Made by a program: the position numbers and the translations under genes. This document shows positions 1-61,963 of a stretch of 64,000 nt of DNA, piece by piece; positions within the stretch are counted from its first letter, which is position 1; every line of letters starts with the position of its first letter. The notes below the pieces were generated by a model that saw only the letters and a list, made by a program, of their open reading frames with translations, made no database searches and had not been told where the DNA came from. Origin of the DNA: a virus; the IMG/VR virus record IMGVR_UViG_3300042453_003986, positions 1 to 64,000 of that record; one strand, written 5' to 3'.

Positions 1-11
1 AACTAGTTTTC

Positions 12-38
12 CGAACGCCGATGAAACGTACTTTCGGC
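12..38 (+). repeat. Intergenic structured element, subtype A copy 1 (CG-AAC-GCCGA-TGAAACGTACTT-TCGGC)
   Basis: Identical to 1731-1757 and 2364-2390; GCCGA/TCGGC stem; lies between a TAG (4-6) and AGGAGG (48-53). Confidence 0.9.
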
Positions 39-60
39 ATACATCAAAGGAGGTACTCAT

Positions 61-612
61 ATGGAGTACACAGTAATGGGAATCCGTTCTATGGAGAATC
101 GCAGCCTCAATCGCGACGTGGTTCGCCACGACCGCTTCGAGGCTATGCAGACCGTTCGCGCGTTTCTGCGCGACGGTGTGCCGACGGTACTGGTGCTGAC
201 GTTCGGTGGCCAGCGGCTGGATTACGCGAGCACACCAGACTGGGAGTGCTTGTTCGACCCGGCCCCGCAAGCCGTTGTCGGCGGATGGTTAAGCCGATGG
301 CTACTCGCGTTGACCGACAACGGAGGCGACGTGGTGACGTTGTTGATCGATTTAGATCGGCAAGATCACTTTCGCCAAGTAGTTGGCCTTTTGCTTATGG
401 TCGAGGCGCGGGGACGTGACCGAGAGTCTGTGCCGTATTACTGGCACCCAGACTACGTTCGCAGCAAGCTCGACGACGGCTACCTGCAGACAATGCAAGA
501 TGCCGAAGACATTCACGGCCTCGAGTACCCGCCAGAGTTCGAGGACTGGCTGAATGAGATCTTCAAAGACTACGCCGTCTTCATTGACGGAGTAGCCACC
601 GTCCTCAAGTAG
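61..612 (+). CDS. Hypothetical early protein, 183 aa
   Basis: AGGAGG 7 nt upstream of ATG; protein-like composition. Confidence 0.85.
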   Translation: MEYTVMGIRSMENRSLNRDVVRHDRFEAMQTVRAFLRDGVPTVLVLTFGGQRLDYASTPDWECLFDPAPQAVVGGWLSRWLLALTDNGGDVVTLLIDLDRQDHFRQVVGLLLMVEARGRDRESVPYYWHPDYVRSKLDDGYLQTMQDAEDIHGLEYPPEFEDWLNEIFKDYAVFIDGVATVLK

Positions 613-616
613 GGTA

Positions 617-653
617 TACTGAGCTATGGCAGAGGCAACAGTAACTTTCTGCC
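617..653 (+). repeat. Intergenic structured element, subtype B copy 1 (TACTG-agctat-GGCAGA-GGCAA-CAGTA-ACTT-TCTGCC)
   Basis: Homologous to 3257-3293 and 3499-3535, with compensatory stem changes. Confidence 0.9.
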
Positions 654-675
654 GTTTATTTAAAGGAGGTCAGTT

Positions 676-915
676 ATGGCCAAGCAAGGAATGTGGATGG
701 GGACCTGCCGCTCGTTTGGTGCCGGGGAGCTCCTGCTCTTCGGGTTGCCGGAAGATCCGACAATTGCCGACAAGTTGGACGTTCTCCTCGACGAGGATCC
801 CACTCAGCAGGAGGTAATTGCATTTCTGCAGGAGTGGGGTCTGCCGTACCAGCTGGGTCGCTGGTCGGTGTTGGATCAGCAGTACGTGTTCACCCCCTAC
901 TCCCGCGTAGAGTAG
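676..915 (+). CDS. Hypothetical early protein, 79 aa
   Basis: AAAGGAGGT RBS upstream. Confidence 0.85.
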   Translation: MAKQGMWMGTCRSFGAGELLLFGLPEDPTIADKLDVLLDEDPTQQEVIAFLQEWGLPYQLGRWSVLDQQYVFTPYSRVE

Positions 916-920
916 GTGCA

Positions 921-947
921 GCGGAGCTGGTAACCGTATAACCTAGC
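921..947 (+). repeat. Intergenic structured element, subtype D copy 1 (GCGG-A-GCT-GGTAA-CCGT-ATAACCT-AGC)
   Basis: Homologous to 1453-1479 and 5570-5596. Confidence 0.85.
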
Positions 948-970
948 AGTGTAGTAAGAGGAGGTCTGCT

Positions 971-1447
971 ATGCCCATCACACAAGAACAAATCAAGCAG
1001 CTGTATGAGGCTGCAAAAGGGCCCTGCACGGATCTGGCCGACCGCATCAAATTCGAGCTGGAGCAAAAAGCACTCCAGTTTGAAGGCGCCGAGGATTGGC
1101 GGCACAACTTGCCCGAGGTCTTGGACGTGCTCTTCAAGACTGACGGAGATGGCTCACAAGAGCGCATTGTGGAGTACTTCGGGCTCAGTGAGAACAAGTT
1201 CACACGAGACCTGCAATTCGAACTGGCGTGGGCGCACCTGATCGACCACACCACGACGGTGGTTGCCAAGGACTCCGCTGGTAATGAGCGCGAGTTCCTA
1301 GTGGTACTTGATATTCTTTTTGACGAGAACGACGCGGCTCACCGTCATCACGACGAATATTACAGAGCCACAGGCATCGCCTACTGGGGCGTTCCCAGTG
1401 AGGCAGAGCCCGGGTATGAGCTCGACGAGGTGTATCGCCTCGCGTAG
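971..1447 (+). CDS. Hypothetical acidic early protein, 158 aa
   Basis: GAGGAGGT RBS. Confidence 0.85.
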   Translation: MPITQEQIKQLYEAAKGPCTDLADRIKFELEQKALQFEGAEDWRHNLPEVLDVLFKTDGDGSQERIVEYFGLSENKFTRDLQFELAWAHLIDHTTTVVAKDSAGNEREFLVVLDILFDENDAAHRHHDEYYRATGIAYWGVPSEAEPGYELDEVYRLA

Positions 1448-1452
1448 TCCTT

Positions 1453-1479
1453 TCGGAGCAGGTAACCGATCAACCTTGC
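1453..1479 (+). repeat. Intergenic structured element, subtype D copy 2 (TCGG-A-GCA-GGTAA-CCGA-TCAACCT-TGC)
   Basis: Core GGTAACCGATCAACCT identical to 5578-5593; flanking stem differs (GCA/TGC). Confidence 0.88.
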
Positions 1480-1502
1480 GCTATTGTAACAGGAGGTGTA
1501 TT

Positions 1503-1718
1503 ATGGAATTTGAATGGGAGTTTATATTTCATGACGCAAGTCGGTACGTCACTGAGGTGACTACTGACTTTGCAGAGCATGAAGTTTTTGACGCACACGG
1601 CGAGATTACCGAAAAAGTCGTTGACGAGGTCGCGTCCGCTGCAGCGGACGCTGCTCTACGAAATCACGGCTTCGCTATCAAGTCGTGGGTGGACTTTCGG
1701 ATTAAGGTGATTGCTTAG
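1503..1718 (+). CDS. Small acidic hypothetical protein (MEFEWEF..., 71 aa)
   Basis: Start moved from 1308 to the ATG at 1503 following AGGAGGT. Confidence 0.8.
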   Translation: MEFEWEFIFHDASRYVTEVTTDFAEHEVFDAHGEITEKVVDEVASAAADAALRNHGFAIKSWVDFRIKVIA

Positions 1719-1730
1719 TCAGTGCATAAT

Positions 1731-1757
1731 CGAACGCCGATGAAACGTACTTTCGGC
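1731..1757 (+). repeat. Intergenic structured element, subtype A copy 2
   Basis: Identical to 12-38. Confidence 0.9.
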
Positions 1758-1778
1758 ATGTATCTTAGGAGGTCAGTT

Positions 1779-2354
1779 ATGACCAAGAACACCATTGCCC
1801 CGGAACTCCTGACTCGCATTGCCCGTATTCCCGGGCTGGAGTACCGCTACACCGAGGCGGATGGGCACATGCTCGTCGCCCGCACGCCTAGCGGTTTGGC
1901 AGACCGCGTCGCCATCTTCGGCAACGGTCAGCGGGCTCTGGAGGCGCTGCACATGGCGGTGCAAATTGCCGAGGGTGTGCTGGCCCACATGGGCTACGAG
2001 GACCGCGCCACTGGCCGCATTGACATGCGGCAGCAGGTCGGCGTACGCTGGCCGCTGGCCGAGGTGGAGGCCAGCGGGGCTGACCCAGCCGACTTCAAGT
2101 CGGCCTTGACCGAATACGGAAATAATTGGTTGCGGTACGAGCGGGAGGAAACTCCTCTTCGTCCGCAGGATGAAGGGCGCATCTACAGCCGCCGTATCCG
2201 TTGGAACGATGGCCTCGAAGAGACGGTGTTGTTCTGTCGCGAGCACGGTGTTCGCGATGGTGACGGTGATGTCTTCTATTATGGCCTGCCACCCGAGGAA
2301 GCTGTAATTGGCGTAGGCAGCCTCGAAGGGGGCTGGCAGATTATCGGGTACTAG
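1779..2354 (+). CDS. Hypothetical early protein (MTKNTIAPE..., 191 aa)
   Basis: Start moved to the ATG at 1779 following AGGAGGT. Confidence 0.85.
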   Translation: MTKNTIAPELLTRIARIPGLEYRYTEADGHMLVARTPSGLADRVAIFGNGQRALEALHMAVQIAEGVLAHMGYEDRATGRIDMRQQVGVRWPLAEVEASGADPADFKSALTEYGNNWLRYEREETPLRPQDEGRIYSRRIRWNDGLEETVLFCREHGVRDGDGDVFYYGLPPEEAVIGVGSLEGGWQIIGY

Positions 2355-2363
2355 GTGAAGTTT

Positions 2364-2390
2364 CGAACGCCGATGAAACGTACTTTCGGC
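2364..2390 (+). repeat. Intergenic structured element, subtype A copy 3
   Basis: Identical to 12-38. Confidence 0.9.
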
Positions 2391-2412
2391 AACTATGTAA
2401 AGGAGGTCTATC

Positions 2413-3252
2413 ATGACCAAGCAGAAAATCACCCCCGGACAGATGCTGGTTGAGAAACTCGTAGCTGCCATTGAGCAGGGCCAAGCTACGGGCAAGTGGA
2501 TCCGCCCGTGGCGGGCAGGCTCATCCAACAACCCAGTCACCGGGCGGTCGTACAGCGGCGGCAACGCCTTGTACCTTGCGATGTATCGGGCATTTGCGGA
2601 AGTCGAACACACCGAGTGGTATGCCACACTCAAGCAGTGGAATAGTGTGGGCGCCAAAGTGCGCTCAGGGGAGAAGGGCCTAACACTGACCGGGTATCCC
2701 AAAGCGGTGGAGAAGAAAGACGCTGACGGTAACGTCTTGTCTAGCTACACTCATTGGGGGTCGTTTACTGTGTTCAATTCCTCACAAGTCGAGGGATGGA
2801 CTCCGCCGGAGTTGACCACGGTGGCAACCGAGCAGGACGTGCGGGACCGATTTCAGGCGATCATTGACCGCCACGGTATCGTGGTCAATACCGGCACGGC
2901 GGCATACTACATGCCCACCACGGACGAGCTCACTATGCCGCCAATAGCTAGCTTCCCAGTCGAGGACAACTACTGGTCAGTGCTGGCTCACGAGGCCATC
3001 CACTGGACTGGCCATCCAAGCCGGCTCGACCGGATTAAGATCGGCAGCCACACAGGCGACGCTTACGCATTTGAGGAGCTTGTAGCAGAGCTCGGCAGCG
3101 TGTTCGTGTCGGCGGAGTTTGGCGTCGTGCCGGAGTCTGACGCCAATATCTTGGCCTACTTGGGTTCGTGGCATCGGCAGATCAAGAAGGACAAAGACTG
3201 CGTCCGCAAGGCCGCAGCTGCAGCTGCCGCGGCTGCTAACTTCTTGAAGTAG
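2413..3252 (+). CDS. ardC: ArdC-like antirestriction protein (ssDNA-binding N-domain plus zincin-like domain)
   Basis: W.RPW, NPVTGRSYSGGN, TLKQW...G.KV..GEKG, FTVFN..Q, HEAIHWTGHPSRL and YAFEELVAELGS motifs typical of ArdC/DUF1738. Confidence 0.9.
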   Translation: MTKQKITPGQMLVEKLVAAIEQGQATGKWIRPWRAGSSNNPVTGRSYSGGNALYLAMYRAFAEVEHTEWYATLKQWNSVGAKVRSGEKGLTLTGYPKAVEKKDADGNVLSSYTHWGSFTVFNSSQVEGWTPPELTTVATEQDVRDRFQAIIDRHGIVVNTGTAAYYMPTTDELTMPPIASFPVEDNYWSVLAHEAIHWTGHPSRLDRIKIGSHTGDAYAFEELVAELGSVFVSAEFGVVPESDANILAYLGSWHRQIKKDKDCVRKAAAAAAAAANFLK

Positions 3253-3256
3253 GCTA

Positions 3257-3293
3257 TACTGAATTATAGCAGATGTAACAGTAACTTTCTGCT
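3257..3293 (+). repeat. Intergenic structured element, subtype B copy 2 (TACTG-aattat-AGCAGA-TGTAA-CAGTA-ACTT-TCTGCT)
   Basis: G-C to A-T compensatory change relative to copy 1. Confidence 0.9.
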
Positions 3294-3314
3294 GCTTACC
3301 TACAGGAGGTCGCT

Positions 3315-3494
3315 ATGACCCGTGTCCACCTTGAGCTCATGTACGGTGACTACACCATTTACGTCACTGTATTGGTTGAGCACAGTGCTGACCAATTCGT
3401 GCTCAAAGAGCGCGCGCTGGAAAAGTATCTACGCGTCTCTGGGGCCGATGCTCCCGAGAAGGCGTGGGTGACGGACTACGAAGAGAACGTCTAG
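3315..3494 (+). CDS. Small hypothetical protein, 59 aa (MTRVHLELMYG...), absent from the ORF track
   Basis: AGGAGGT RBS, ATG at 3315, TAG at 3492-3494; fills the gap between two elements. Confidence 0.8.
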   Translation: MTRVHLELMYGDYTIYVTVLVEHSADQFVLKERALEKYLRVSGADAPEKAWVTDYEENV

Positions 3495-3498
3495 TTTC

Positions 3499-3535
3499 TG
3501 CTGAGGTAGGGCGGAGGCAACAGTAACTTTCCGCC
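3499..3535 (+). repeat. Intergenic structured element, subtype B copy 3 (TGCTG-aggtag-GGCGGA-GGCAA-CAGTA-ACTT-TCCGCC)
   Basis: A-T to G-C compensatory change in stem 2; G.U wobble in stem 1. Confidence 0.9.
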
Positions 3536-3557
3536 ACTTATTTAGAGGAGGTCTACT

Positions 3558-3956
3558 ATGACCTATTTCGAAGTGACTGCCCATTGGGGCGCAATGAAGA
3601 TCAGCCTCAAGGTCGAGGCTACTGGCCAAGCAGCGGCAATTCAGAAATTCGTAGACCGGTTGCCCGGTCTGGGCATTAGCTACAACGCTTTGCCCGAGCG
3701 TCTAGACGTTGTCGAGTGCGACTACCCCGAAGGCGAGTATGACACGGTCTACGTGCCTTTCGCAGTAGACGCTCTGCAGGAGCACTACGGCCTGTACCTG
3801 TGCGTTGTAGACCGCGAAAATACGGAGATCAACACCGGCCGCACGTTTACGCTCGAGGAGTGGAATCGAGCCCGCAAGTGGCTGGCCGATGACGGTGAAG
3901 GCATGAACGAGGCTGAGTTCGTGCAGTACGCACTAAAGGATTTCCCCAATGAGTAA
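3558..3956 (+). CDS. Hypothetical acidic protein, 132 aa
   Basis: GAGGAGGT RBS. Confidence 0.85.
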   Translation: MTYFEVTAHWGAMKISLKVEATGQAAAIQKFVDRLPGLGISYNALPERLDVVECDYPEGEYDTVYVPFAVDALQEHYGLYLCVVDRENTEINTGRTFTLEEWNRARKWLADDGEGMNEAEFVQYALKDFPNE

Positions 3957-4290
3957 CGAAGAACACGGGCCACGTGGTACAACGTACCGGGTGGTTACTT
4001 ACAGCCGACCAGACATGCCGACTAGCACGCAGTACTCCTTGGAGGCTGCGTGCGAAGTTGTGCTGAATAAGGTCTTGCCTGTACCCGTCTCGTCGTTCAC
4101 TATTGCAGTGGTACACGACGACTGGAAGCCGTACCAGTTGGGCAAGCACCGTCCGACATGGATTGCCCGCCTTGACTACGAAGCAGCTGGGCAGCAAGGC
4201 AGCTTGACTGTCGACGTTAGCGAAGGCATAGAACGGCTATGGCTGTACTTGCTGGAGAAAGACCGAGAGTACCTTCACCTGTACAGGTAG
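3949..4290 (+). CDS. Hypothetical protein, 113 aa
   Basis: Overlaps the upstream stop by 8 nt; AAGGA upstream; the only early gene here without an element. Confidence 0.75.
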   Translation: MSNEEHGPRGTTYRVVTYSRPDMPTSTQYSLEAACEVVLNKVLPVPVSSFTIAVVHDDWKPYQLGKHRPTWIARLDYEAAGQQGSLTVDVSEGIERLWLYLLEKDREYLHLYR

Positions 4291-4295
4291 ACAAT

Positions 4296-4322
4296 CGAGC
4301 GCAAGGGTAACGTACTTCTTGC
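4296..4322 (+). repeat. Intergenic structured element, subtype A variant (CG-AGC-GCAAG-GGTAACGTACTT-CTTGC)
   Basis: Same loop as subtype A with a different perfect 5-bp stem. Confidence 0.88.
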
Positions 4323-4344
4323 AACAACAGCGCTAGGAGGGCGC

Positions 4345-4680
4345 ATGCCGAATTACTTCACGTATGTCCTCACCATGTTCTACATGCGTGCAGGCTGGCA
4401 CGAGGGCAACTACTACTCTAGCTGGAGTAGCGGCTGCCTTCAGCTGCTACGTGTACGGGCGACGCGGTACCCGTATGCGGTGATTTACCATCGACCGCTT
4501 GATCACCCACGCCTTGCTCTCGAGGCGTGGCGTGACGGTCGGCGCATCTGGCAGGATCGGCTGTACTATGTGACGCTGCAGCGTCACACTGCGTACCTGC
4601 AGACGCTGGCCGACAAAGACAAGTATCCGTGGCATCCTGACGCAATCAGCGACCGGCTGCCAGATGGTTACACTGAGTAA
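4345..4680 (+). CDS. Hypothetical protein, 111 aa
   Basis: AGGAGG RBS. Confidence 0.75.
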   Translation: MPNYFTYVLTMFYMRAGWHEGNYYSSWSSGCLQLLRVRATRYPYAVIYHRPLDHPRLALEAWRDGRRIWQDRLYYVTLQRHTAYLQTLADKDKYPWHPDAISDRLPDGYTE

Positions 4681-4686
4681 GTCCGC

Positions 4687-4714
4687 ACGAGCACCAAGGC
4701 AACGTACTTTTGGT
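4687..4714 (+). repeat. Intergenic structured element, subtype A variant (ACG-AGC-ACCAA-GGCAACGTACTT-TTGGT)
   Basis: Same loop with a third stem sequence, ACCAA/TTGGT. Confidence 0.88.
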
Positions 4715-4736
4715 AATTATACACAGGAGGTCAGCT

Positions 4737-5564
4737 ATGACCAAGAACCGCAACAGCGCCGGACGCGCACCGATCAAGTTTGTGGAGAACACCGGCAACA
4801 CTAAGCTGGTAGGCACAAAGCCCGTTCAGTACACGGCGGCTACTACGTACAGCTGGGTAGGCCCTACCTGCCCGACCAGCTGCTGGTTCCACCCCGAGTC
4901 GGTTCATCGGTCTCGCTGGCCGGAGGGGTTCAGGGCCTGCTATGCCACAAAAGGACACACGGCATTTCAAACAAATGCCAATGTGTTTGCAGAGTCAGAG
5001 TACGACGCGAGTGGGTTAGCAGTGGTACGGGCTCGCATCGAAGGAATGATTCTCAAGCACCGTGCGCAAGACATAGTAGTCGACGTGTTTCGCTGGCACA
5101 CCGGCGGTGACATTCTCGTGCCAAACGAAGACCGCGTGTGGGACGCGCACGTAGACTTAATCCTCTGGGCCGCCGAAGAATGCCGCATCAACGGTATCCC
5201 GTTTATCGGATATACTGCCGCGTGGCGGTATCCCGGTGCTGAGCGGCTTAAGGACGTGTTCCTCGCCTCCGTGCAGGACGAAGAGTCCGCCGTTGAGGCT
5301 TTGAACGCTGGCTGGACAGTTGCATACGGCGTTCTTAAAGAGGACGCCGAGGCCGCTGTTGAGTGGTTGCGCGTGCGCGGACACAAAGCGACCATGTGCC
5401 CAGAGTTGGCGGGCAAGGTTAAGTCATGCGCTGAATGTGGCTTGTGTGCTGCGCTCGATACTGAGCGTATGCACCAGCACAAATTGGCTCGGTACATGCT
5501 CTACCGCCGCAAGAGCAAGTCAGTTGCGCCCGAAGTTATGATTGTGTTCCCGATTCATAACTAG
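4737..5564 (+). CDS. Gp88-like Cys-rich phage protein
   Basis: GNTKL, TCPTSC, CYA, FRWHTGGD, GYT, LASV, CPE and CAECGLC motifs; start moved to 4737 following AGGAGGT. Confidence 0.7.
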   Translation: MTKNRNSAGRAPIKFVENTGNTKLVGTKPVQYTAATTYSWVGPTCPTSCWFHPESVHRSRWPEGFRACYATKGHTAFQTNANVFAESEYDASGLAVVRARIEGMILKHRAQDIVVDVFRWHTGGDILVPNEDRVWDAHVDLILWAAEECRINGIPFIGYTAAWRYPGAERLKDVFLASVQDEESAVEALNAGWTVAYGVLKEDAEAAVEWLRVRGHKATMCPELAGKVKSCAECGLCAALDTERMHQHKLARYMLYRRKSKSVAPEVMIVFPIHN

Positions 5565-5569
5565 TTCAC

Positions 5570-5596
5570 TCGGAGTAGGTAACCGATCAACCTTAC
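5570..5596 (+). repeat. Intergenic structured element, subtype D copy 3 (TCGG-A-GTA-GGTAA-CCGA-TCAACCT-TAC)
   Basis: Compensatory stem GTA/TAC. Confidence 0.88.
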
Positions 5597-5620
5597 ACGT
5601 TTACTAAGGAGACAACCACT

Positions 5621-6367
5621 ATGGACAAGCAGCAATTTATCGACATCTACCTGCCCGCTTTTGTCACGTACTGTGAGGAATGGGCAGACTTCGAGCAGGA
5701 GGACACGGAGCCCGCAGAGGAGTTCGCAAAGACGATTGTCGAGCACGCCGCTAACGACGAGGCGTTGCGTCTTGCGTGCGAGGTTGCCGCGGACACTCTT
5801 CGCAGACGTGGCAATGAGGAGTACCACGCGGTGGCTTTGCTACAGGTAATGCACCCGCTGCGCAGCACGTACTTCAAGTTGGTGCACAAGCCGAACATCG
5901 ATTGCGACACGGTGGAGAAGCATCGACTTATTGGCCGCTTGTTCAAAGCAGGCATGGAACTGTGGCTCGCCAACTACAGCGAGGATACCGTCCCGTGGTA
6001 CTTCACCACCGTCACTGCAGAAGAGGTCGATTTCTACGACATCCCAGTCATGGGGCCGTACGGGATTGATGACCTTGCCAAGGGCATTCCGGCCAAGGCA
6101 GTACAAGTCTTGAAAGAGATGGTGGCTGACGGCGTGCGTTTGTACGGCGGTGACCGCCGCTCAGGCGTGTGCTGGTACGAGCTGCAAGAGCTTGTAGAGC
6201 ACGGCAACTTGATCAAGGAGCTCAAAGACGGCATCGAAGGCTTAATCTACGACCTGACGCAAGTCACAGAGGCCGAGAGTCCAGCCCGGGAGCTGGCCGA
6301 TATGCTGGATTGGTGGCACACGTTGTTTGTGTACGACAATCCACACTTCGACAGCTACGCTCAGTAG
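5621..6367 (+). CDS. Hypothetical acidic protein, 248 aa
   Basis: TAAGGAG RBS; last gene before the terminator. Confidence 0.85.
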   Translation: MDKQQFIDIYLPAFVTYCEEWADFEQEDTEPAEEFAKTIVEHAANDEALRLACEVAADTLRRRGNEEYHAVALLQVMHPLRSTYFKLVHKPNIDCDTVEKHRLIGRLFKAGMELWLANYSEDTVPWYFTTVTAEEVDFYDIPVMGPYGIDDLAKGIPAKAVQVLKEMVADGVRLYGGDRRSGVCWYELQELVEHGNLIKELKDGIEGLIYDLTQVTEAESPARELADMLDWWHTLFVYDNPHFDSYAQ

Positions 6368-6379
6368 TCCCTAACCGCT

Positions 6380-6422
6380 AACCCTACAGTTGGGCCACGT
6401 GCTCAGCTGTAGGGTTTTTTTA
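6380..6422 (+). terminator. Intrinsic terminator closing the early array
   Basis: AACCCTACAG...CTGTAGGGTT stem followed by a T run. Confidence 0.9.
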
Positions 6423-9030: not shown

Positions 9031-9106
9031 TGGCGCCAGCAGCGAGATTCGAACTCACGACATACTGCTTAGAAGGCAGTTATTCTATCCACTGAATTAT
9101 GCTGGC
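9031..9106 (-). tRNA. tRNA-Arg(UCU) with encoded CCA
   Basis: 76 nt GCCAGCA...TGCTGGCGCCA; anticodon arm ACTGC-CTTCTAA-GCAGT; GTTCGAATC T-loop. Confidence 0.95.
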
Positions 9107-32898: not shown

Positions 32899-35800
32899 TT
32901 ACTGAAGAATACCTTGCCCGCTAGGCATTGGAAAAGGGCGATCCTTCGGTGGTTTAGCAGGACTTGTAGTGGACACCGTGTACACGCGCAATGCTTTTCC
33001 TTCGGGAGTATCCACGCTGTAAGCATCGAATGCAGTAGGAACTTCCCGCGCATTAACCGACAGCTGCGCTTTAAGTGTCTTTGCTTCCGGAGTTTCGGTA
33101 GAACCGTACAGAGACAAGGCAAGTCGATTATTTGCGGCGCTTGCAAGGTTATTAGCTTCGTCAAAACGGCCTCTACTTATCAATCCTTCAACAGCAGTCA
33201 TATCGTTAGTATACTGCATAATCGCAGCTACACCTTTAGCCATAGTTGCCGGTACTTGTGTAGCGATTTCTGTAGCTGCATCAGTAAACGAGCGAACTAA
33301 ATCATCTTTTTGTCTTGCAAGGTTAATCAGCGCATCTTCAATTTGTTGCTTTAGTCCAATATTAAAATCTTCATATTGATTGATAAGACCACTCATTGTA
33401 GTACTTGTAGTTTCTTCAATGTTAACGTACCCTTGAGTCCAGAAGTCTGACCACAGCGGGGCAACGTCAATCATGTTCTGCAATTCTCGGTTAATCTGTT
33501 GAATCTCTTCACTTAATCGTTGCTGCTGTATGTTAAAGTCAGAAAGCGCCCTTGCAGCTTGCTGAATTTGCAAAGGATCTCCTGATTGTTGGGCAGCCTG
33601 CATATTCTGCACAAGACCTTGGTACTCAAGACCCGAGTAGCGCTGCTGACGCAACAAATCCTCTCTGCGTAAACGCAAAGCCTTTTCAGATTCAGCTCGC
33701 TGAATCATCGTGGCCACTTGCTGGTCTGCAAACTGCTGTGCCTGTGCACCGCGTTCTGGGTCTCGGCCAAGCAAAGCAGCCTGTGCTTGAAGATTTGCGC
33801 GAGTTTCCGGATCAGCAGTCTTCATTAGCTCAGTCATTTCGCTTACTACTTGATCTCGATATTTAATAACCTGTGCCCATGCGGCGTCTCGGCCAGCTAA
33901 ATCAGTGATTGGCAAGCGGTCGTATGCGGTAAAGGCTTTTTCAAGCAAAGCAGTAGACTCGCTAGAATAGCGCCCTTGAAAGCGCAAAAACGCTGCTGGG
34001 TTGCTTTGCTCCGCTTGGTCCGCAAACTTCTTACCTGCTTGAGCTACTTGATCAATTTTTCGTCGGTCCGATTCAGCCATGTTAGCTGAACCAAGCTGAC
34101 TGTAGTTTTGAGCAAGAGACTGTCGTTTACTCAACTCTCTTTGCTGTACCGCTTGCACCATTTGCCGTGTAGCGTTTAAATGGATTCCTTCAAGCTGACG
34201 AAACGCGTTTCTTGTAATATCCTCTAGCGAGCGGTTATGGTTAATGGCCAGATCGCGCATTTGCGTATTATGTTGAAAGTTTCGTTGAGCTAGCTCCGTC
34301 TGCGCTTGAATACCCATACTATACACGTTCATCAGTTCAGCAGGGTTCATTAGTGAAGTGATTGACGCATTACTCGCAATCATGTTTGCATACGCAAGAC
34401 GGCCTCGAGGTCCTGACGTATAAGGTAGCTGCATTCCAGCTAGTCGGTCTGCTCCTCGAGCAACCCGCGGGTCAATAGGTTGAAAAGCTCGACGCATTTC
34501 GTAGTAGGGGATCTGTGCCAACTGCGCGCTGCTTGAAGCCTGCGGTAAAAACATTTGCTGACTAATCATAGAACGCCAATCAAGCCCGGAGATTCTGCGC
34601 ATTTCGTTAAGAGCGAACAATGGGTCACCGTTAGACATGTAGTCGCGCAGTGTATTTGCTGCCGAACCTGCCCTGCTAAATCCGGCTACGTAGTTAGCAA
34701 AAGTAGTCTGAAAAGTTGAAACATATGGACCCATCAATTCAGCCATTGATTTGTTGTGCTTGCTAACTGCGTTAAACGTTTTAATGCTTTCTTCAACTGC
34801 ATCATTAAGTGCAGACTTTGCGCCTTCATCAGCAAAACTTGTACGCATAAACTGCGAGTTCATGACCTGAGACGCACTAAGAGGCCCAGCCGAGCCAAAC
34901 AATCCCATAGCATTGTTTAGTGCTGTTTGTTCAGCAAACGTATTAAATCGTTGCTGCTTTCTTTGCAACTCTTGATCGAATTGCTGGTCCATATACTCTT
35001 TTGCTTGTACTTGATAAGTTGGATCATTTAGCAAGCGTTGACGCATTGCGTCACTATAGGTTTTTATCTGCTCAGAAGTTAAAAAGCGCGCCATCTGTGT
35101 TGCGGTTAACTGCGTAGACACACCTTGAGCAGCTTGTGCAGCCTCTCGATAGTCTCTCCCAAGGACTGCAGGGCTTTCCAAAAGACCTAGCGCTTCTAAT
35201 TGATTGTTGTTAAGCCCTAGCTCAGAAGGAGTAATGCCGAGTCCGTATTTTTGTGCTAACTGTATAATATCGGCATTGTCAATCAGTTCATTACCAACGC
35301 CTATCAAACGCTGCGATTCTTTACCAACCGCAGTGTCTCTTAAATTAGCGTCTTGAGCAAAAGCGAGAGACTGTGTAAGAGCTTCTGTAAGAGAAACCAT
35401 CTCTGTTCCGTCGGGACTAAGCACCACAGTGCCTAGTATACTTTTACCTTGCTCATCTTGTTGGTTGTACAGCTTTTCAATCGCGGTGGAGGCTTCGTCA
35501 TAAGCAGCTTGCGTAAGTCCTGACGCAGCAAGGGCTTCTGAAATTTTGGTGTTGGGTATAAAACGACCGCGAGTTTTCTTAAGTTCATTGTTAATAAGTG
35601 TTTCGCGATTGCCCGAAAAACCTGCGTTTGCCAAGTAAACGGAGTCAAATTTATTTTGCATTCTTTGATTTTTTTCAAACTCTGTTTGCATTTTATACAG
35701 CTGTCGCATTTTTTCAACACTGACGTCGTTTAAGTCGATTGCTCGCGTAATTAAAGCGTACCCACCGGCTGCTACTCCGGCCCCGAGAGCTGCCAAGCCT

Positions 35801-47800: not shown

Positions 47801-48024
47801 TTTCGAACGTCGTCCACAAACTGCTCTAACGCAAAAACAGCGAGAGTTACACGCTCTTGAAAATCTGATCCCAAACGCGCTGTCGGGTTTACTCGCTTAG
47901 CCTCAGCACCAAAATCTGCAGAAACACCAGACAGTGCGCTTTTAGCTTCCTCTGAATTTTTTTCAACAGCCGTAAGCAAGTTTACGATTTGCGTTAATTG
48001 ACTAATTGTTTCTTCCATAATCAC
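32899..48024 (-). CDS. Giant tape-measure-like protein (5041 aa) with embedded DEDDh exonuclease and thermonuclease domains
   Basis: Position after tail tube and chaperone; Ala/Gln-rich helical composition; tape-measure-like segment DPAQGMEGASIAIKEFLSG...SL..RF; hydrophobic Gly/Ala segments; nuclease motifs described in findings. Confidence 0.85.
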   Translation of the reverse strand: MIMEETISQLTQIVNLLTAVEKNSEEAKSALSGVSADFGAEAKRVNPTARLGSDFQERVTLAVFALEQFVDDVRNNAITPADRADTLRTIQSMVQAVTRDLKTAASSMSEVTDTRRITERPTESTAPSSRRSRFYKETESTDAPAERPVPLIYSERPSNFSIDNSLFRRVFGFSPSLRNSSKDYETFAALLKDYLTTVPEAEQPSLYKAVATADLTVLKNAIKETFKEAPDEKDVQEQISALLKQIASTMLSSIGYALEGGGMTAPQLVGGTASAVVKLTENVGNRLRKILRQAVVNTKRLTAAGRTLPPQGVNQVEQTLKVGLEDILSDDGRATVYLSTDTDHTDEVNSAITQRFSSTFRAIESFVQNLNPRRRYRQEAQGIDTKVGSQITGFQSSAVFPTQFLLSAEAATTQLRKIVQEQIEKKDVVTVSVGGKAVQLPRALAEQFAPAVQATKRASTYSGVLGGGITGKSFTSMFGGAGGVQQVSNLYAAELINNYVQNGDVSADPEEFVAQLFGESSKDTEITPAQLFIQRLLEDLERQSVKLEREAVQAASGESRALLNHRAREVKNQIAFVRKITSSETSPQERAYLVTGVQSGEGISIDTALATLYGSHVFTPFPAAAPEIVDYAAGLLQNLQEQGLAGRERPYETQSSAVYLENALAGYTSEDGRTADPIAKIKGLGIEGFERARERTAGGQPYAALEFFSDYFGLGVQRGSAGGSLPAAQIASAYLDESGNFDVTRAREAYATNPQMTLNNLQTLFYAMTDVGRRDLPLLGIVKSLSSVPAKEVPFLLEEIAKVAPGIAQVLNSSRAREGLAAASKKDSTVERMRGILQAISPMLQAAYTQYASGVLGVGSPEEARKILESDTVAPEFLQLSKTYKMLSAEELNNPNNTFVQGLTYLASGASAAEMAESPLDFMAAILGTQDQLAEVRRQQEQAPLTIEELAQQRYPVAQAAGEQLRQAVGVFPERRTAQKQKRLLELRNLQDQLAVLRVNGATQASITYLEDQIKRTKLAIDDEERPMAPIERLRAQLSRDDLSSQQRAQLGTELAIREEAFNKYRFSDVGLDEGFGTDDFLARMRRKIEYQDAESAIPAELQQLHNRAFYETDSKEKEKLAEQIFKRAETLTEEERGKYDKFLELEKERRIRAAQYAQESSVFYGRASEGFEAQGALSFDPQAEMRDSYAVDDFVEEVIKGTPLARMVRSVEVSDQTYRRSAFDLDTLLFGDTSYSAAEASKAAQKQLAELPKDSSTSWEVQSAKEDILKLEAEINAYETEINEIETQAKKKKDQVNKAADEEISPVNEKIQSLKTQIAAIENREGQDTETDYDKFNVSMDLQPLKLELGQAEINAKSIEHERQYALGEIQRQHYTGLLKHSKKLAEEKRDDTKRSVSYPVVGIDYYKLPNEWVARVEGTEPKDIATALSQSFTGKEIPPELESAQTELAQLQEQVEAKLQERKSIAASAAPVRLEKIRRELADLREAARAGTVPADADYHAKISYLMQLEKEAEQEDPQVVNTALKTIDQQIESLKAQAAKIPRQAGDALVSRVAAERLRTSLFRRRQYLYSQLNINPKDSLLGLYRQRKETSSPQAARLLTRLITSSPLYQQLRFDLDYDDEKMNALFDTLLLKQDMAEQEAVGPTEADREFTTQALASYLQRARESDYALPENFDEAENRRALQMLQAKKSRGDSLTMQEQADYSQYRKYERNAQIRKAHQLVTNQPSAEPLVDFLKILYASLPQDYNLTGDKPEMIAKDVRIRNLLASIAELTDPASFQALAMIMNPRTSGRALDRAIASLPAADRAIINEAIAVLQEETNPGLALATSEIGKGMQEAQITDAVQIAAAEVAADKRRSGTSAASTSGRTAATKQKQDELDKAIKKRRDEEDAARKERRDRKEAAIREYRDREDAEIKKRRDEEDAARKERRDEREAALREYRDKEEPALKSQRDKEDAEIKERRDEEDAARKEKRDERKAALKEYRDREDAARKEKSKMKALALEVQASGEDIQTTWANPHYFAEYLKRFYIGEEIPPEVESALAELDQLDKQYDAASKIVGEVHLFGGTLEDYQKAQASKEEMNRTVSQAQKIQKQVGDALVSRLAAEEQQDESDAEIKERRDKNDELNKKKQDELDAAIKSQRDKEDAALKEQRDSEDAARKERRDEPDAARKERRDNIDELDKKKQDELDNVIKKQRDREDAARKERRDKNDELTKKKQDELDNVIKKQRDREDAARKERRDTIDAGIAAVIDVVGFDLETTIPKPGETAQILEFASVGGGKTATGAFATEVQSTMGSKEGPALSAKEIQKARSRLQRSAESGKTIVGHNIKEFDLPILFGGAENVPTIVQNQAVDTLQMANELQLPGSRTLGSLATLFGLEYDPTRLHEAAYDTDLNVRLYHELVKAQQEQKSNADQFSKNMLKRFFAQSQLTDEQKKLLQPLVTARRGYATDKVKQTSANLAYMLAHARRLDALKTASISGKGELQLFDSENRPITDQNYIKSVLAMFGHTLDTEISPEELRRMQDEAAKVTSMFDPYRVDGSLDTVYNLFNSVAGSVVGKGPAGVGASRYTTEAFSYLRSLVGAADMSLDPAALRSLLSRWGSFSAHGDMDKVTTPAAAGAAVLASALTDATAPTITARPSTERKPAEVSGVDITKATLTGERGAAAERVLRADELIGIAEEKATQSSEELKRQEQAVNDASAYVARVQKIKDWMTRRYAKYPSRLISINAKVAHGEDNLRKAEQTLKEMETVVTAATAEKEAAFAEKSEAVSALELITTKKEAYEEEKLAVSEPSVASVSDTPESSVTVVESTLDDKAVAEMAGEITSTRTRKPRASGKESRKKHESAESVGSGSSGSGSGGGGGAVSATISGGAEFSGPVTITNLDARNLEVASIEKATINATNVNLSLHSGASLGSIEVKQILTKEAVSSKSRSPLTIENYHAGSVARQNIQSAPGAVFGGGGFGGGGGGGYYGKNPALLARENELSVLRNNFQERRGQFAGLDDAAAQQQLKQQTSDFIKESLRLIQSDVLQTDKYTAGTAAEAPRVALKSAIDEMIDPANEAAVAANFGSRLEAIAGLVKQYVDTLDTSTLPEDVAKAAKSEIDGLNRTVQSAREQGYYTLTAVSKDQTSIDNAARNKAREDEAAAREAARVDEADKRKRDIVANESRKNAMLTAKGVLGSARTAFDLAGGELNGQTFAVGRAELIKTTVDALRDTTELDALSTVVSGLASAEPDNVREFTAALNQLNQAADDANLTEAATAFAKLTKVAADLQERVTASTTLTDAEKQSAMSALTLFTSRASQTDYIKPTAGVIEATERKRMSVLEEQLQAAAGRPGFFGLRRDSTQRRLLKEYAQERFGQAGADIMYNDRSMRFQARTENGGRIDLIEASAEDLKRLQEDLGNAGAPIGLEELQKLQNVMSRTQQTRNQTPFADPLFFAASRIRDIQTLGMTAMSALSLPSTIAGIIDQAASPALNAVRSMTSLRGLSRDQGVFNKAVAAASEQQALFGGSLTSNIGNITSFIPLTNAYGVDISQVVNVARKLAAFDPAQGMEGASIAIKEFLSGNVASLSRRFEINRSALSKIDIGNATEMLDKLDEVLAQMGVTDQLINEAANSRAAQYDKMLGRLETMGIKVSEFAVGVATPLLESILGPSSVLGEMADTSTINLMRDEGLKFTGSKALSKLADVDMYAPDLSTFTRQVDKVLQEANDEIALAAASYQKTTGVTPLVSPYRLLENMKPEERVQFRNMAQANRLFKGMTTEQALMQASRDMGGDYASYQEFVNQRKLLPTNRMSYEQMIKSDRFTELKADAEKAMIDEVARGAGGAFRPGILTALASPSTFLVGSLIASGVESASRSGASLKRATIGKVTDLDTFRTTSGERVRLVGIDAPETGSKAAIKAMSKAVEVGLRENENITYEAGGFDKYGRTLAVVYNEQGQMINSELIARGIAGAMTDNQAVNSFASFVADQGIGVVNEAAAKAGLGGLPVISDEVKRAYYMQTYFGGIGGTAGSVGTAVGGGMLTNATIGALAGSKMFAGSAAASAAAGAGIVGTAGLAALGAGVAAGGYALITRAIDLNDVSVEKMRQLYKMQTEFEKNQRMQNKFDSVYLANAGFSGNRETLINNELKKTRGRFIPNTKISEALAASGLTQAAYDEASTAIEKLYNQQDEQGKSILGTVVLSPDGTEMVSLTEALTQSLAFAQDANLRDTAVGKESQRLIGVGNELIDNADIIQLAQKYGLGITPSELGLNNNQLEALGLLESPAVLGRDYREAAQAAQGVSTQLTATQMARFLTSEQIKTYSDAMRQRLLNDPTYQVQAKEYMDQQFDQELQRKQQRFNTFAEQTALNNAMGLFGSAGPLSASQVMNSQFMRTSFADEGAKSALNDAVEESIKTFNAVSKHNKSMAELMGPYVSTFQTTFANYVAGFSRAGSAANTLRDYMSNGDPLFALNEMRRISGLDWRSMISQQMFLPQASSSAQLAQIPYYEMRRAFQPIDPRVARGADRLAGMQLPYTSGPRGRLAYANMIASNASITSLMNPAELMNVYSMGIQAQTELAQRNFQHNTQMRDLAINHNRSLEDITRNAFRQLEGIHLNATRQMVQAVQQRELSKRQSLAQNYSQLGSANMAESDRRKIDQVAQAGKKFADQAEQSNPAAFLRFQGRYSSESTALLEKAFTAYDRLPITDLAGRDAAWAQVIKYRDQVVSEMTELMKTADPETRANLQAQAALLGRDPERGAQAQQFADQQVATMIQRAESEKALRLRREDLLRQQRYSGLEYQGLVQNMQAAQQSGDPLQIQQAARALSDFNIQQQRLSEEIQQINRELQNMIDVAPLWSDFWTQGYVNIEETTSTTMSGLINQYEDFNIGLKQQIEDALINLARQKDDLVRSFTDAATEIATQVPATMAKGVAAIMQYTNDMTAVEGLISRGRFDEANNLASAANNRLALSLYGSTETPEAKTLKAQLSVNAREVPTAFDAYSVDTPEGKALRVYTVSTTSPAKPPKDRPFPMPSGQGILQ
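41270..42390 (-). repeat. 33-nt (11-aa) period charged repeats within the tape-measure gene
   Basis: Units such as DEEDAARKERR, DELDNVIKKQR, DKNDELNKKKQ; near-exact 99-nt tandem duplication around 41276-41473. Confidence 0.9.
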
Positions 48025-58740: not shown

Positions 58741-59388
58741 ATGGCAAAAAGTCGTCGATTTCAGGAGATACTGGATAGTTACTCAGACAAGTATGACTTG
58801 GCTACGCTATCGTCTCCGAACGACCGAGCAAACCTTGAGATGCTCATCAACAATCAAGTAATCGTTGAAAGTATTCAAGCAAAGCTTCAAGAGCTGACGG
58901 AAGACGATCCAGTGGAGAATATTGACATTATTCAGCGTTTAGGCTCGTCTCTTAAAGACATTATTGAGCGAAATTTGCAACTGGAGCGTGCACTTGCTCT
59001 TGATCGAAAGACTCGCAACACTAACACGTCTGAGTCGGTCGCGGAGTACCTTGTAAATTTAAAGCAGGTGGCTTTAGACTTTTTAGAGAAGCGCCTACTG
59101 CGCGTGTACTGCCCTGATTGTAAAATCATGGTTGCGCGTCTTTCGATTGTGCAAGAGCACAGCCCATTTTCACTTCGTGTCAAGTGCAGTCAATGTGAAA
59201 AAGATGTAATTATAGAGCGAGAAGAAAAAGACATCTTTTTTGACGTAGCCGACTCTGCGTGGAGAAGAAAGTACCAATACAAGGTTCAGAAGGCAAAGAA
59301 AACCGAATCTTCCATTGAAGAGGTTGAAGACGACCTGCTGCTTGTTGACCCTGAGGAGGACAGCGATGCTCATTCCGAAGCTCAGTGA
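58741..59388 (+). CDS. Putative terminase small subunit (coiled coil plus Zn ribbon)
   Basis: Directly upstream of and overlapping terL; CPDC...CSQC. Confidence 0.5.
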   Translation: MAKSRRFQEILDSYSDKYDLATLSSPNDRANLEMLINNQVIVESIQAKLQELTEDDPVENIDIIQRLGSSLKDIIERNLQLERALALDRKTRNTNTSESVAEYLVNLKQVALDFLEKRLLRVYCPDCKIMVARLSIVQEHSPFSLRVKCSQCEKDVIIEREEKDIFFDVADSAWRRKYQYKVQKAKKTESSIEEVEDDLLLVDPEEDSDAHSEAQ

Positions 59389-61963
59389 GGCCGAGTATGC
59401 TCTGTTAGAGGTGATTGAGGACCCTATCTGGCTAAACGAGTTTCTGCGGTCGACTAATTATGGTGACATGAACAAAAGTAATTGGCCGGCAGAGGAGTTT
59501 TCGTTTCGTCCGTATCAGCGTGAGCTGCTTACAGACCAATCGCCGCATATTGTAGTTACTGGGGGACGTGCTATTGGAAAGTGTCAGCCAGCACATGCAC
59601 GCGTGTACACTACCGAAGGATACAAAACTATCACGCAGTTGAAGAAACAGCCGTCTTTTGTGACATACGGATACTCGGAAGAAACAAAGACATTTACTAA
59701 ACGACGAGCGTACATTCGCAGGGACAAGTGGAAACGTTGTTTTCACATTAAGTCAGCGACAGCACGCGATCTTATCGTCACAGATGCTCACCCAGTCCTC
59801 ACGCCTAAAGGGTACGTTATGGCTGGTCATCTGCGTGTCGGCGACCTCATTGCTACAATGAATCAGTTACCGACTGAGCACTGTCAAGACACAACGATGA
59901 AGTGGGCAGAAGCGCGAGCATTAGGTTACTTTTCTGTAAACAGCTTATATGTCCGTTCTTCCGGAGGAATTAAGCCCAGATTTCGCAAGATTGAGGCGGA
60001 ATTGCACGCAATTGCAGAAGATCTGTACTTGCAGGTAAGAAAGCTTGACGATGGCCGCGTATACTTAGATCGACTAAAAGCCAGCGGAGTAAAACATACC
60101 GTAACTCAGCTTCGGCTAGAGTTGGGTTTGCTTAAAGAAGAAGATCGTCGAGTAAACCGCCTTGACTGGTTAAAGACATACTCTTTACCGACAATCAAGG
60201 CATTTATTGAGGCTGCTTTTGCTCAGTACGGTAACTTGTCGTTAGACCGAGTATCTCTAAAAGTAACCAATCGGGCGTACGTAGAAGATTGGCGAGAAAT
60301 TTTGCTATACTTCGGAGTTTCCACTACAATTACAAAATTAGCCGATCATACCGACGAACGTCATGACCTAGACATTGACGACAGCGTCTGGCTGCTGGAA
60401 ACTGCTACAAAACGAGATGCTCGCGTGTTTTGGGGTCAGTTTACTCTGCCGGGTGTGGCTATTTCAGAAAAAGCAGCAGAGCCGATGGCCTCTGAATGGT
60501 TTCGATGGGAACCTATTACCGAAATCAGCATTACTAATCGATTTAATTTGACCTACTCCATTCATGTGTACCAAGACGAAACGTACATTTCAGAAAACAT
60601 CGTGGTGCATAACTCGGTCATTCTGGAAGACTTGTTGACGTATCAGGTGTTAAATTCAAATATTGAATTTCCAAAAACACCTGAACAACTACTCGTTACG
60701 CCAAATACTTCGCAGATGACCCCATTACTGGATCGACTAGTGTTGAAGTTTACTACTTCTCCGATGCTAAAAGATTTTCTTAAAAATCAAATTAACCGAT
60801 CAAAAGGAACGCTTGACTTTAGTATGGGAGCGCGACAGCATCGTTTGTACGCACGTATTGCCGGTAGCAAAGAGGCAAACAACCTTGTAGGTCTGCACAT
60901 TCCTAAGGTATGCGGAGATGAGTTCCAGCTTTTTTCTATGTCTGCGTTTAACCAGCTGCAGCCTACTATCAACACTTGGGAAAGCAAAGTACAGGAGGTA
61001 TATTTCGGAGTACCAAACGGTATGCGAAATATGGCGATTTACGTGCTAGACATGAAGATGGCCAAGTTTAAAAAGTACCGCATTCCTGCACCCAATAACC
61101 CGTACTTCACTCGCGATGACTGGAATGACGCGCTGGCAAAATTTGGTGGAGAAGACAGCGACACCTTCCAACAACTAATTCTTGGCCGTCACGGCTCTCC
61201 TTCGTTTCAGCTACTTTCTCGCGATCAGATGAAAACGGTCCCGATTGACTTCTACCGGTATCGATACGCGCAAGCCGACAAAGAATCGGGTAAATCGTAT
61301 CGAGATGCTCTTCCGGTCATTAAGCTTCCTCCTCACTTAGATGTCGTATTCTCGATTGACACCGGATTTTCTGATCCAACAATTATCCAAGTACTTATCC
61401 GTACCGAGACTTACTGGGTATGCGTACGGCGATACCGTATTCAGCGCATCGACTATCCAGAGCAAGAACAGATTATTGACTACCTTGTAAAAGCGTATCT
61501 TCCCTCACTCGTGGCAGTAGACGTAGGTGCTGGAGGCGGTGGTGCAGGAATTATCCAAAGTTTGAAAACAAGGCCTGAGTATGCTGCGATGAACTACGCA
61601 AAGCGAATTCTCCCTGTGCAGTTTAATGAAAAAGTGGTGCTGGGTGCTGCGGACGAAATTGAAGTCAGTGAATCATTTAAATCGTGGGGCACTGGCGAGC
61701 TTGTCAAGAATATCTATAGCGGTAATTTAGTATTTTCTGAAGTAGACGCGGAAGGCATCTCGCAGCTTGAACGCTTGGCTCGTCAACGACGTACTAGCGG
61801 AGCAATGCACTACTTTATTACTTCGCCCCGAGGCTTTGGAGAGACAGCCGATGATCACATTTACGCAAGCTACTTATGTTTTATTGCCGCTCTTCGTGAG
61901 CCAAAGCAAGCGGCCTTAGTTCCGTCCTTGGCAAGGGCGACCAGTCAATTTACACAGAGGTAA
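59366..61963 (+). CDS. terL: Terminase large subunit containing an intein
   Basis: RPYQ, GGRAIGK/S Walker A (split by the intein), GDE Walker B, GVPNG, SIDTG.SDPT and DDH nuclease motifs; GAGGAGG before the ATG at 59366. Confidence 0.9.
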   Translation: MLIPKLSEAEYALLEVIEDPIWLNEFLRSTNYGDMNKSNWPAEEFSFRPYQRELLTDQSPHIVVTGGRAIGKCQPAHARVYTTEGYKTITQLKKQPSFVTYGYSEETKTFTKRRAYIRRDKWKRCFHIKSATARDLIVTDAHPVLTPKGYVMAGHLRVGDLIATMNQLPTEHCQDTTMKWAEARALGYFSVNSLYVRSSGGIKPRFRKIEAELHAIAEDLYLQVRKLDDGRVYLDRLKASGVKHTVTQLRLELGLLKEEDRRVNRLDWLKTYSLPTIKAFIEAAFAQYGNLSLDRVSLKVTNRAYVEDWREILLYFGVSTTITKLADHTDERHDLDIDDSVWLLETATKRDARVFWGQFTLPGVAISEKAAEPMASEWFRWEPITEISITNRFNLTYSIHVYQDETYISENIVVHNSVILEDLLTYQVLNSNIEFPKTPEQLLVTPNTSQMTPLLDRLVLKFTTSPMLKDFLKNQINRSKGTLDFSMGARQHRLYARIAGSKEANNLVGLHIPKVCGDEFQLFSMSAFNQLQPTINTWESKVQEVYFGVPNGMRNMAIYVLDMKMAKFKKYRIPAPNNPYFTRDDWNDALAKFGGEDSDTFQQLILGRHGSPSFQLLSRDQMKTVPIDFYRYRYAQADKESGKSYRDALPVIKLPPHLDVVFSIDTGFSDPTIIQVLIRTETYWVCVRRYRIQRIDYPEQEQIIDYLVKAYLPSLVAVDVGAGGGGAGIIQSLKTRPEYAAMNYAKRILPVQFNEKVVLGAADEIEVSESFKSWGTGELVKNIYSGNLVFSEVDAEGISQLERLARQRRTSGAMHYFITSPRGFGETADDHIYASYLCFIAALREPKQAALVPSLARATSQFTQR
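59582..60613 (+). mobile_element. Intein (344 aa) with degenerate LAGLIDADG-like region
   Basis: Starts CQPAHARV, block B VTDAHP, ends NIVVHN followed by Ser. Confidence 0.92.

Follow-up and report, generated by a model that had tools for sequence, protein, structure and literature searches.

Gene-by-gene punctuation of phage early transcripts is already known, from the ribonuclease III (RNase III) sites of phage T7 and from hammerhead ribozymes. The T7 sites lie between the early genes and are hairpins of about 20 base pairs (bp) or more with internal loops, and each gene-sized mRNA keeps a protective structure after the cut. For hammerheads flanking single phage genes, anti-restriction genes included, cleavage in vitro has been shown, and the role proposed for them is to divide long phage transcripts into mRNAs of gene length (PMC3088659). 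Here we describe eleven small elements of 27-37 nucleotides (nt), with predicted H-type pseudoknot topology, that lie between the early genes of an uncultured freshwater phage. The window, meaning the whole stretch of DNA analysed, comprises bases 1-64000 of the 78,041-bp IMG/VR virus record IMGVR_UViG_3300042453_003986 (genome G000), which ends in a 73-bp terminal repeat.

The initial annotation had reported one such element in front of almost every early gene. All eleven were located (Table 1), every one on the + strand, which is the coding strand, and each gap between genes in the first 5.6 kb is filled. The only gene pair with no element between its members (3558-3956 and 3949-4290) overlaps. 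The common layout is a stop codon, 3-6 nt (up to 12), the element, an AT-rich spacer of 9-14 nt, AGGAGG and the ATG. The element at 12 recurs at genome 77993 because of the terminal repeat.

The form first written for the elements, S1-L1-S2-KGHAA-S1'-(..A)CYT-S2' (S, stem; L, loop), fits, and all the stem 2 pairs listed with it are present. One part of it had to be corrected: KGHAA is not an open loop, as its GG pairs with the YT of CYT before S2' in an automatic parse. This extension of stem 2 consists of a G-C or G.U pair followed by a G.U pair; the third lineage described below has GC/GC there. With GG paired to YT, the unpaired L2 becomes YAA and L3 becomes ..AAC. The refined order is S1 (3-6 bp, or 2-3 bp in subtype A), L1, S2 (5-8 bp), L2 (YAA), S1', L3 (..AAC) and S2'. 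L1 is A, usually AG, with a length of 1-6 nt, and its supposed scaling with stem 2 holds only roughly. The ribosome-binding site lies outside the fold, with AGGAGG 9-14 nt beyond S2'.

Table 1. Elements of the early array and associated RNA features. Positions refer to the window unless the genome is named.
Feature	Position	Strand	Structure or remark
Subtype A element	12..38	+	CG-AAC-GCCGA-TGAAA-CG-TACTT-TCGGC
Subtype B element	617..653	+	S1 TACTG/CAGTA; S2 GGCAGA(GG)/(TT)TCTGCC
Subtype C element	921..947	+	GCGG-A-GCTGG-TAA-CCGT-ATAAC-CTAGC; one G.U in S1
Subtype C element	1453..1479	+	TCGG-A-GCAGG-TAA-CCGA-TCAAC-CTTGC
Subtype A element	1731..1757	+	core same as copy at 12; in a gene-plus-element cassette missing from relatives
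Subtype A element	2364..2390	+	precedes ArdC-like anti-restriction gene (2413-3252)
Subtype B element	3257..3293	+	S1 TACTG/CAGTA; S2 AGCAGA/TCTGCT
Subtype B element	3499..3535	+	S1 TGCTG/CAGTA (G.U); S2 GGCGGA(GG)/(TT)TCCGCC
Subtype A' element	4296..4322	+	CG-AGC-GCAAG(GG)-TAA-CG-TAC-(TT)CTTGC
Subtype A' element	4687..4714	+	ACG-AGC-ACCAA(GG)-CAA-CGT-AC-(TT)TTGGT
Subtype C element	5570..5596	+	TCGG-A-GTAGG-TAA-CCGA-TCAAC-CTTAC; last of array
Terminator-like hairpin, strong	6380-6416	+	16 bp and T run; closes early operon after gene 5621-6367
Subtype C copies, three more	genome 76285, 76819, 77557		outside window
Sibling copies, two	genome 75690, 77080		outside window
Different pseudoknot, four copies, plus others			CTGCA-ACG-CTCAC-C-TGCAG-..-GTGAG; outside window
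Type II hammerheads, two, identical	genome 71492-71592, 72392-72492 (L008 7492-7592, 8392-8492)		900 nt apart

Relatives were recruited with a DNA pattern together with a conserved early protein of 256 amino acids (aa). Three lineages carry the family: L139 at about 94% protein identity, L021, L140 and L141 at about 63%, and L143 at about 47%. All of them share the layout of stop codon, element, AT-rich spacer, AGGAGG and ATG, with many new stem sequences, and the element is present in at least 14 copies per genome.

Partner-swap permutations on 37 distinct copies from the three lineages gave 136 bp in S1, against 71.7 +/- 7.0, and 229 bp in S2, against 155.9 +/- 6.5, with 0/5000 permutations for either stem. 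These counts are not exact probabilities, since related sequences and a fitted parse went into them, but the signal is large regardless. In the subtype C alignment (A3), 96.4% of cells pair and 6 of the 9 pairs change on both sides; no shuffle out of 500 reaches the observed pairing, and slid controls give 12-46%. The permutation counts for this subtype are 2/5000 (S1) and 0/5000 (S2). Pairing reaches 92.5% of cells for subtype B (alignment A4), where 4 of the 5 stem 2 pairs vary on both sides (S2 0/5000). Its stem 1 is nearly invariant, with three of four pairs unchanged in the alignment (S1 232/5000). Covariation of stem 1 in homologues, chosen beforehand as the test of the fold, was strong for subtype C and weak for subtype B, and the homologue S1 pairs are CCGG/CCGG, CTGG/CCAG, ACGG/CCGT, GCGG/CCGC, GTGG/CCAC, ATGG/CCAT and CCCTG/CAGGG. 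The counterpart of the 4687 element in L139 has ACCGA, which makes a G.U pair. Two copies break pairs, L139:11374 in S1 and L143:10956 in S2.

Subtype A gave 5/5000 for S2, with S1 uninformative. Its stem 1 had been described as only 2-3 bp; the same length was found here, with no independent support for that stem. The initial description of a pseudoknot-like family in several geometric variants is thus upheld by covarying helices, with stem 1 of subtype A as the part left unsupported. One subtype A copy has a possible alternative stem, GTTTC/GAAAC, on its upstream side; this was discarded, as the other copies do not keep it.

Single-sequence pseudoknot scoring and z-scores of minimum free energy rank individual copies no better than shuffles, either as pseudoknots or as hairpins. 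The support for the fold is comparative. In terms of strand, the G.U-type pairs first noted on the + strand were confirmed and account for 59 of 362 pairs. The + strand outscores the - strand in 24 of the 37 copies, with the reverse in 8 (p 0.003). Both results fit a coding-strand RNA. The string AACGTACTT occurs seven times forward and never in reverse in the genome, and its reversed control gives 0. As judged by comparison across the lineages, the elements are shown to be a selected + strand RNA structure with H-type pseudoknot topology.

A further observation concerns the subtype C copies of the window. At 913-933, 1445-1465 and 5562-5582 the UAA of L2 is in frame, exactly six codons past the upstream TAG. 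This may be a second stop in tandem, or it may simply follow from the constant spacing. The fixed 5-nt spacer of the other subtype C copies implies that their L2 UAA also lies six codons past the stop.

No Rfam family accounts for the elements. The initial remark that they could not be matched to preQ1, SAM-II or guanidine-III held, with no covariance-model match at gathering score. Searches with Rfam 15 at E <= 10 over the whole window, over 1-6000 and over two 70-nt pieces gave no match on the elements. The hammerhead core (CUGANGA, GAAA and UH around three stems) is absent from all eleven. Beyond the window, the sibling type CGUGG-AGUCGAGUAA-CCACG-UUAAAA (genome 75686-75744) shows a weak alignment to the hairpin and UUAAAA tail of the DUF805 RNA (RF03081), at 24.1 bits against a gathering score of 51.1 and with E = 1; the eleven elements have no match to that model at E <= 10. 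The pseudoknot family appears to be undescribed in the RNA family libraries and literature searched.

The elements are confined to the early operon. A subtype C covariance model finds array copies only, on the + strand, plus one weak match (19 bits) in a giant open reading frame (ORF). In a pattern scan of prokaryote genomes (596 Gb), 0/98 matches retain both helices. Of 12 matches to the subtype C pattern in IMG/VR, one was a true relative; with the subtype B pattern, which is too loose, there was no true copy among the matches listed. No relatives were found among cultured phages by megablast and tblastn, or by a protein search of genome contigs.

Comparison of the relatives shows both strong conservation of the elements and movement of the units that carry them. 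Between G000 and L139, element cores are 98.9% identical and flanking ORFs 84.5-86.2%. The orthologues of the ArdC gene have a subtype A copy in front in two lineages and subtype B in the third. Since orthologous genes bear subtype A, B or C by lineage, the subtypes behave as exchangeable modules. Contigs from two other samples are without the gene at 1503-1718 and the element at 1731, and the same absence is seen in L139. The breakpoints fall in the repeated ribosome-binding-site region, with joints 1490>1767 and 1497>1777. To judge from these alignments, gene-plus-element cassettes are gained and lost by recombination in repeated ribosome-binding-site and element sequence (1490-1777). In the second lineage a well-kept copy with a compensatory S1 (CCCTG/CAGGG) stands after the last gene, with no gene behind it; this terminal copy is easier to reconcile with a role at boundaries or ends than with one at start sites.

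The eleven copies of the window are part of a larger array that extends past it and includes hammerheads and other pseudoknot types (Table 1). This early array of small + strand genes starts near genome 71.1 kb and spans the record ends, so that window positions 1-6.4 kb are its downstream half; in L139 it is contiguous. Promoter-like and terminator-like sites inside the array, sigma-70-like promoters included, show no excess over shuffles. Given this and the one strong terminator, we read the array as a single transcript of about 13 kb with some 30 small genes, running from a promoter region at about 71.1 kb to 6380-6416. The gene next after the promoter region, the first of the operon, has no element. 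The initial proposal of one fold controlling a regulon of early genes is therefore borne out in part: the elements stand in front of almost all early genes, but these form one long operon and are not dispersed.

The CUGAUGA / GAAA / GUC core is complete in both hammerheads of the array. Against Rfam RF02276, a 200-nt search puts them at 25.6 bits with E 0.0022, short of the gathering score of 37. Variants in L139 and L140 have different stems and keep the core; stem III covaries in L140 and stem I is different in L139. The hammerheads occupy the same slot as the elements, from stop codon to ribosome-binding site, in the same operon.

The elements are tentatively explained as intercistronic punctuation of the early transcript of about 13 kb, each one a site of cleavage or RNase arrest, an account that we favour while holding it to be short of probable. 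Their position only between cistrons, the slot they have in common with the hammerheads and the role proposed for such hammerheads (PMC3088659) all lead to this preference. The compact, stable folds would mark where the long transcript is cut or where RNases stop, and each gene would become a separately stable and translatable RNA unit. The RNA might cut itself, or an RNase of the host or the phage might do so. We infer RNA processing or protection at the elements. Five possible roles had been listed in the initial annotation with no preference among them; to judge from the context, processing or nuclease punctuation is more likely than a translational enhancer or a ligand sensor. A narrower version, that the elements may be a new and unusually small (27-37 nt) class of self-cleaving ribozyme doing the job of the operon's hammerheads gene by gene, we regard as rather unlikely.

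Several points weigh against punctuation. Simple H-type pseudoknots are not known to block RNase J or Xrn1-type enzymes. RNase III requires longer helices than those of the elements, and the CCA that a mimic for RNase P would need is absent. The elements are very small and their loop lengths vary (L1 1-6 nt, L3 2-9 nt), and in subtype A (12, 1731, 2364, 4296 and 4687) S1 is an invariant 2-3 bp that carries no covariation information. Finally, a slot common to elements and hammerheads is association, not proof.

The elements could instead be operators for a trans-acting phage or host RNA-binding protein that reads the A/AG, YAA and AAC loops and switches the translation or stability of the early genes together; T4 RegA and the gene 32 pseudoknot operator are the models for such a system. 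Conserved unpaired bases on freely varying stems would suit a binding site of this kind, as would the ribosome-binding site at a fixed 9-14 nt across an AT-rich unstructured spacer, and the many copies within one timing class of genes. However, no RNA-binding protein was identified among the early ORFs, which have almost no family matches, and the one universally conserved early protein models as beta-propeller-like with weak matches. The placement is also awkward for an operator, with the operon's first gene lacking an element, one conserved copy having no downstream gene and the ribosome-binding site lying outside the fold. On balance a protein operator seems somewhat unlikely.

The gain and loss of cassettes (G000 vs L139), with breakpoints in the repeated ribosome-binding-site region, would also be expected of a passive insulator, in which the fold locks the sequence after the stop, keeps the next ribosome-binding site open and needs neither cleavage nor a factor. 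Such a device would make gene cassettes freely exchangeable, and the geometry of the module is indeed standardised. But a plain hairpin would suffice for this, and predicted stabilities are ordinary. The pseudoknot, the conserved loop bases, the conserved G.U and the 98.9% core identity point to a requirement more specific than that, and we consider a purely passive role improbable.

A small-ligand aptamer, with a metabolite bound at the helix junction of a minimal H-type pseudoknot to tune early expression, is very improbable. The topology and loop make-up recall the preQ1-I aptamer, and conserved bases do cluster at the junction. Yet there is no Rfam riboswitch match, the 70-nt searches included, and no expression platform, as the ribosome-binding site is not sequestered and no terminator is present; 14 or more copies per operon are unlike any known riboswitch. 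We give hardly any credence to a DNA-level signal with incidental pairing, be it recombination sites or promoters such as N4-type hairpins read by an injected polymerase. The phage does have a giant virion-type protein of 5041 aa and repeats at cassette boundaries. But two interleaved helices can covary only within a single strand, and the G.U pairs, found on the non-template strand, would read C.A on the template. In addition, loop lengths are 10-16 nt where N4-type hairpins have 3 nt, the giant ORF has no polymerase domain by Pfam and PHROGs, and sigma-70-like promoters are not in excess.

Other roles were examined and rejected. The elements are not in the list of predicted intrinsic terminators, their loops being 10-16 nt where 3-8 are required, and only 6380-6416 qualifies. 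As for a recoding pseudoknot (readthrough or frameshift), the frame downstream is closed by a stop within 4-32 codons in 8 of 10 gaps, and the protein would gain no useful extension.

Regarding the early operon itself, its G+C content is 56-60%, compared with 43-47% in the structural region of the genome, so that the array (window 1-6400 and genome 71100-78041) is 10-15 points higher than the structural genes. Stop codons also differ: TAG is used in 22 of 26 early genes and TGA in none, and elsewhere TAG is used in 12 of 58. Most early proteins have no family match, the exceptions being the ArdC-like anti-restriction protein, GP88/DUF7227 and an L5 gp82-like protein. The matches to the L5 gp82 and GP88 families give no more than a hint of an actinobacterial (Actinomycetota) host. 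The most conserved early protein is the one of 256 aa (genome 74913-75683; L008 10913-11683), which belongs to no family and is present in every array-carrying lineage. Its model is beta-propeller-like (predicted local distance difference test, pLDDT, 72); a nuclease fold was sought in it, with weak RCC1/BLIP-II-type matches as the only result.

In the rest of the genome, the giant ORF (5041 aa, window 32899-48024, - strand) contains RNase_T (DEDDh) exonuclease and staphylococcal-nuclease domains and is presumably a giant tape-measure or injected protein. A 485-aa protein (genome 69394-70851; L008 5394-6851) carries DUF2828 (TROVE-like), DUF7788 and vWA domains, and a structured RNA precedes its gene. 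Near this gene lies a tRNA-like RNA (L008 4625-4682) with a weak mascRNA-type match (E = 2). The terminase-like ORF (window 59315-61963, +) has a weak match to an intein-splicing domain, below the Pfam cut-off. Two tRNA genes were found, tRNA-Arg(TCT) at window 9031-9106 (-) and tRNA-Leu(TAG) at genome 66936-67021 (+).

Should the elements cleave themselves, they would be a new, very small ribozyme class. If they stop or recruit RNases, they would represent a new boundary element of bacterial mRNA, which synthetic operons could take over as it stands as a short insulator.

In terms of known systems, the preQ1-I aptamer (RF00522) is a minimal H-type pseudoknot of about 34 nt, with a first stem of 4-5 bp, a UAAC-like L2 and an adenine-rich L3. 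The elements resemble it in being minimal H-type pseudoknots with a UAAC-like L2 and an A-rich L3 close to the ribosome-binding site; unlike it, they give no model match, have a longer second stem and come in many copies per operon. The T4 gene 32 operator is a single autoregulatory H-type pseudoknot bound by gp32. Here too an H-type pseudoknot is followed by an unstructured AU-rich stretch up to the ribosome-binding site, but the element occurs many times, always directly past a stop codon, and no binding protein was identified for it. With the RNase III sites of T7 they have in common that structured elements stand between the cistrons of a long early transcript, although their helices are knotted and, at 3-8 bp, too short for that enzyme. 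The PeSL cassettes of T4-type phages (promoter plus stem-loop) act at the level of DNA and transcription (PMC2839356, PMC4122927). Like these, the elements are repeated intergenic modules that flank small early ORFs and lie at indel boundaries; the differences are that no promoter was found and that covariation marks the repeated unit as an RNA pseudoknot.

The clustered type II hammerheads of phages and prophages (Perreault et al. 2011, PMC3088659) are, like the elements, small structured RNAs set between a stop codon and the ribosome-binding site that follows, and they recur from gene to gene along an early or accessory operon with an anti-restriction gene. The arrangement itself is thus of a known kind, structured punctuation of phage early operons. 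What differs is the RNA: instead of a hammerhead core, the same slot is filled by H-type pseudoknots of 27-37 nt, an uncatalogued compact family with clean covariation, at least 14 copies per genome and members in three phage lineages.

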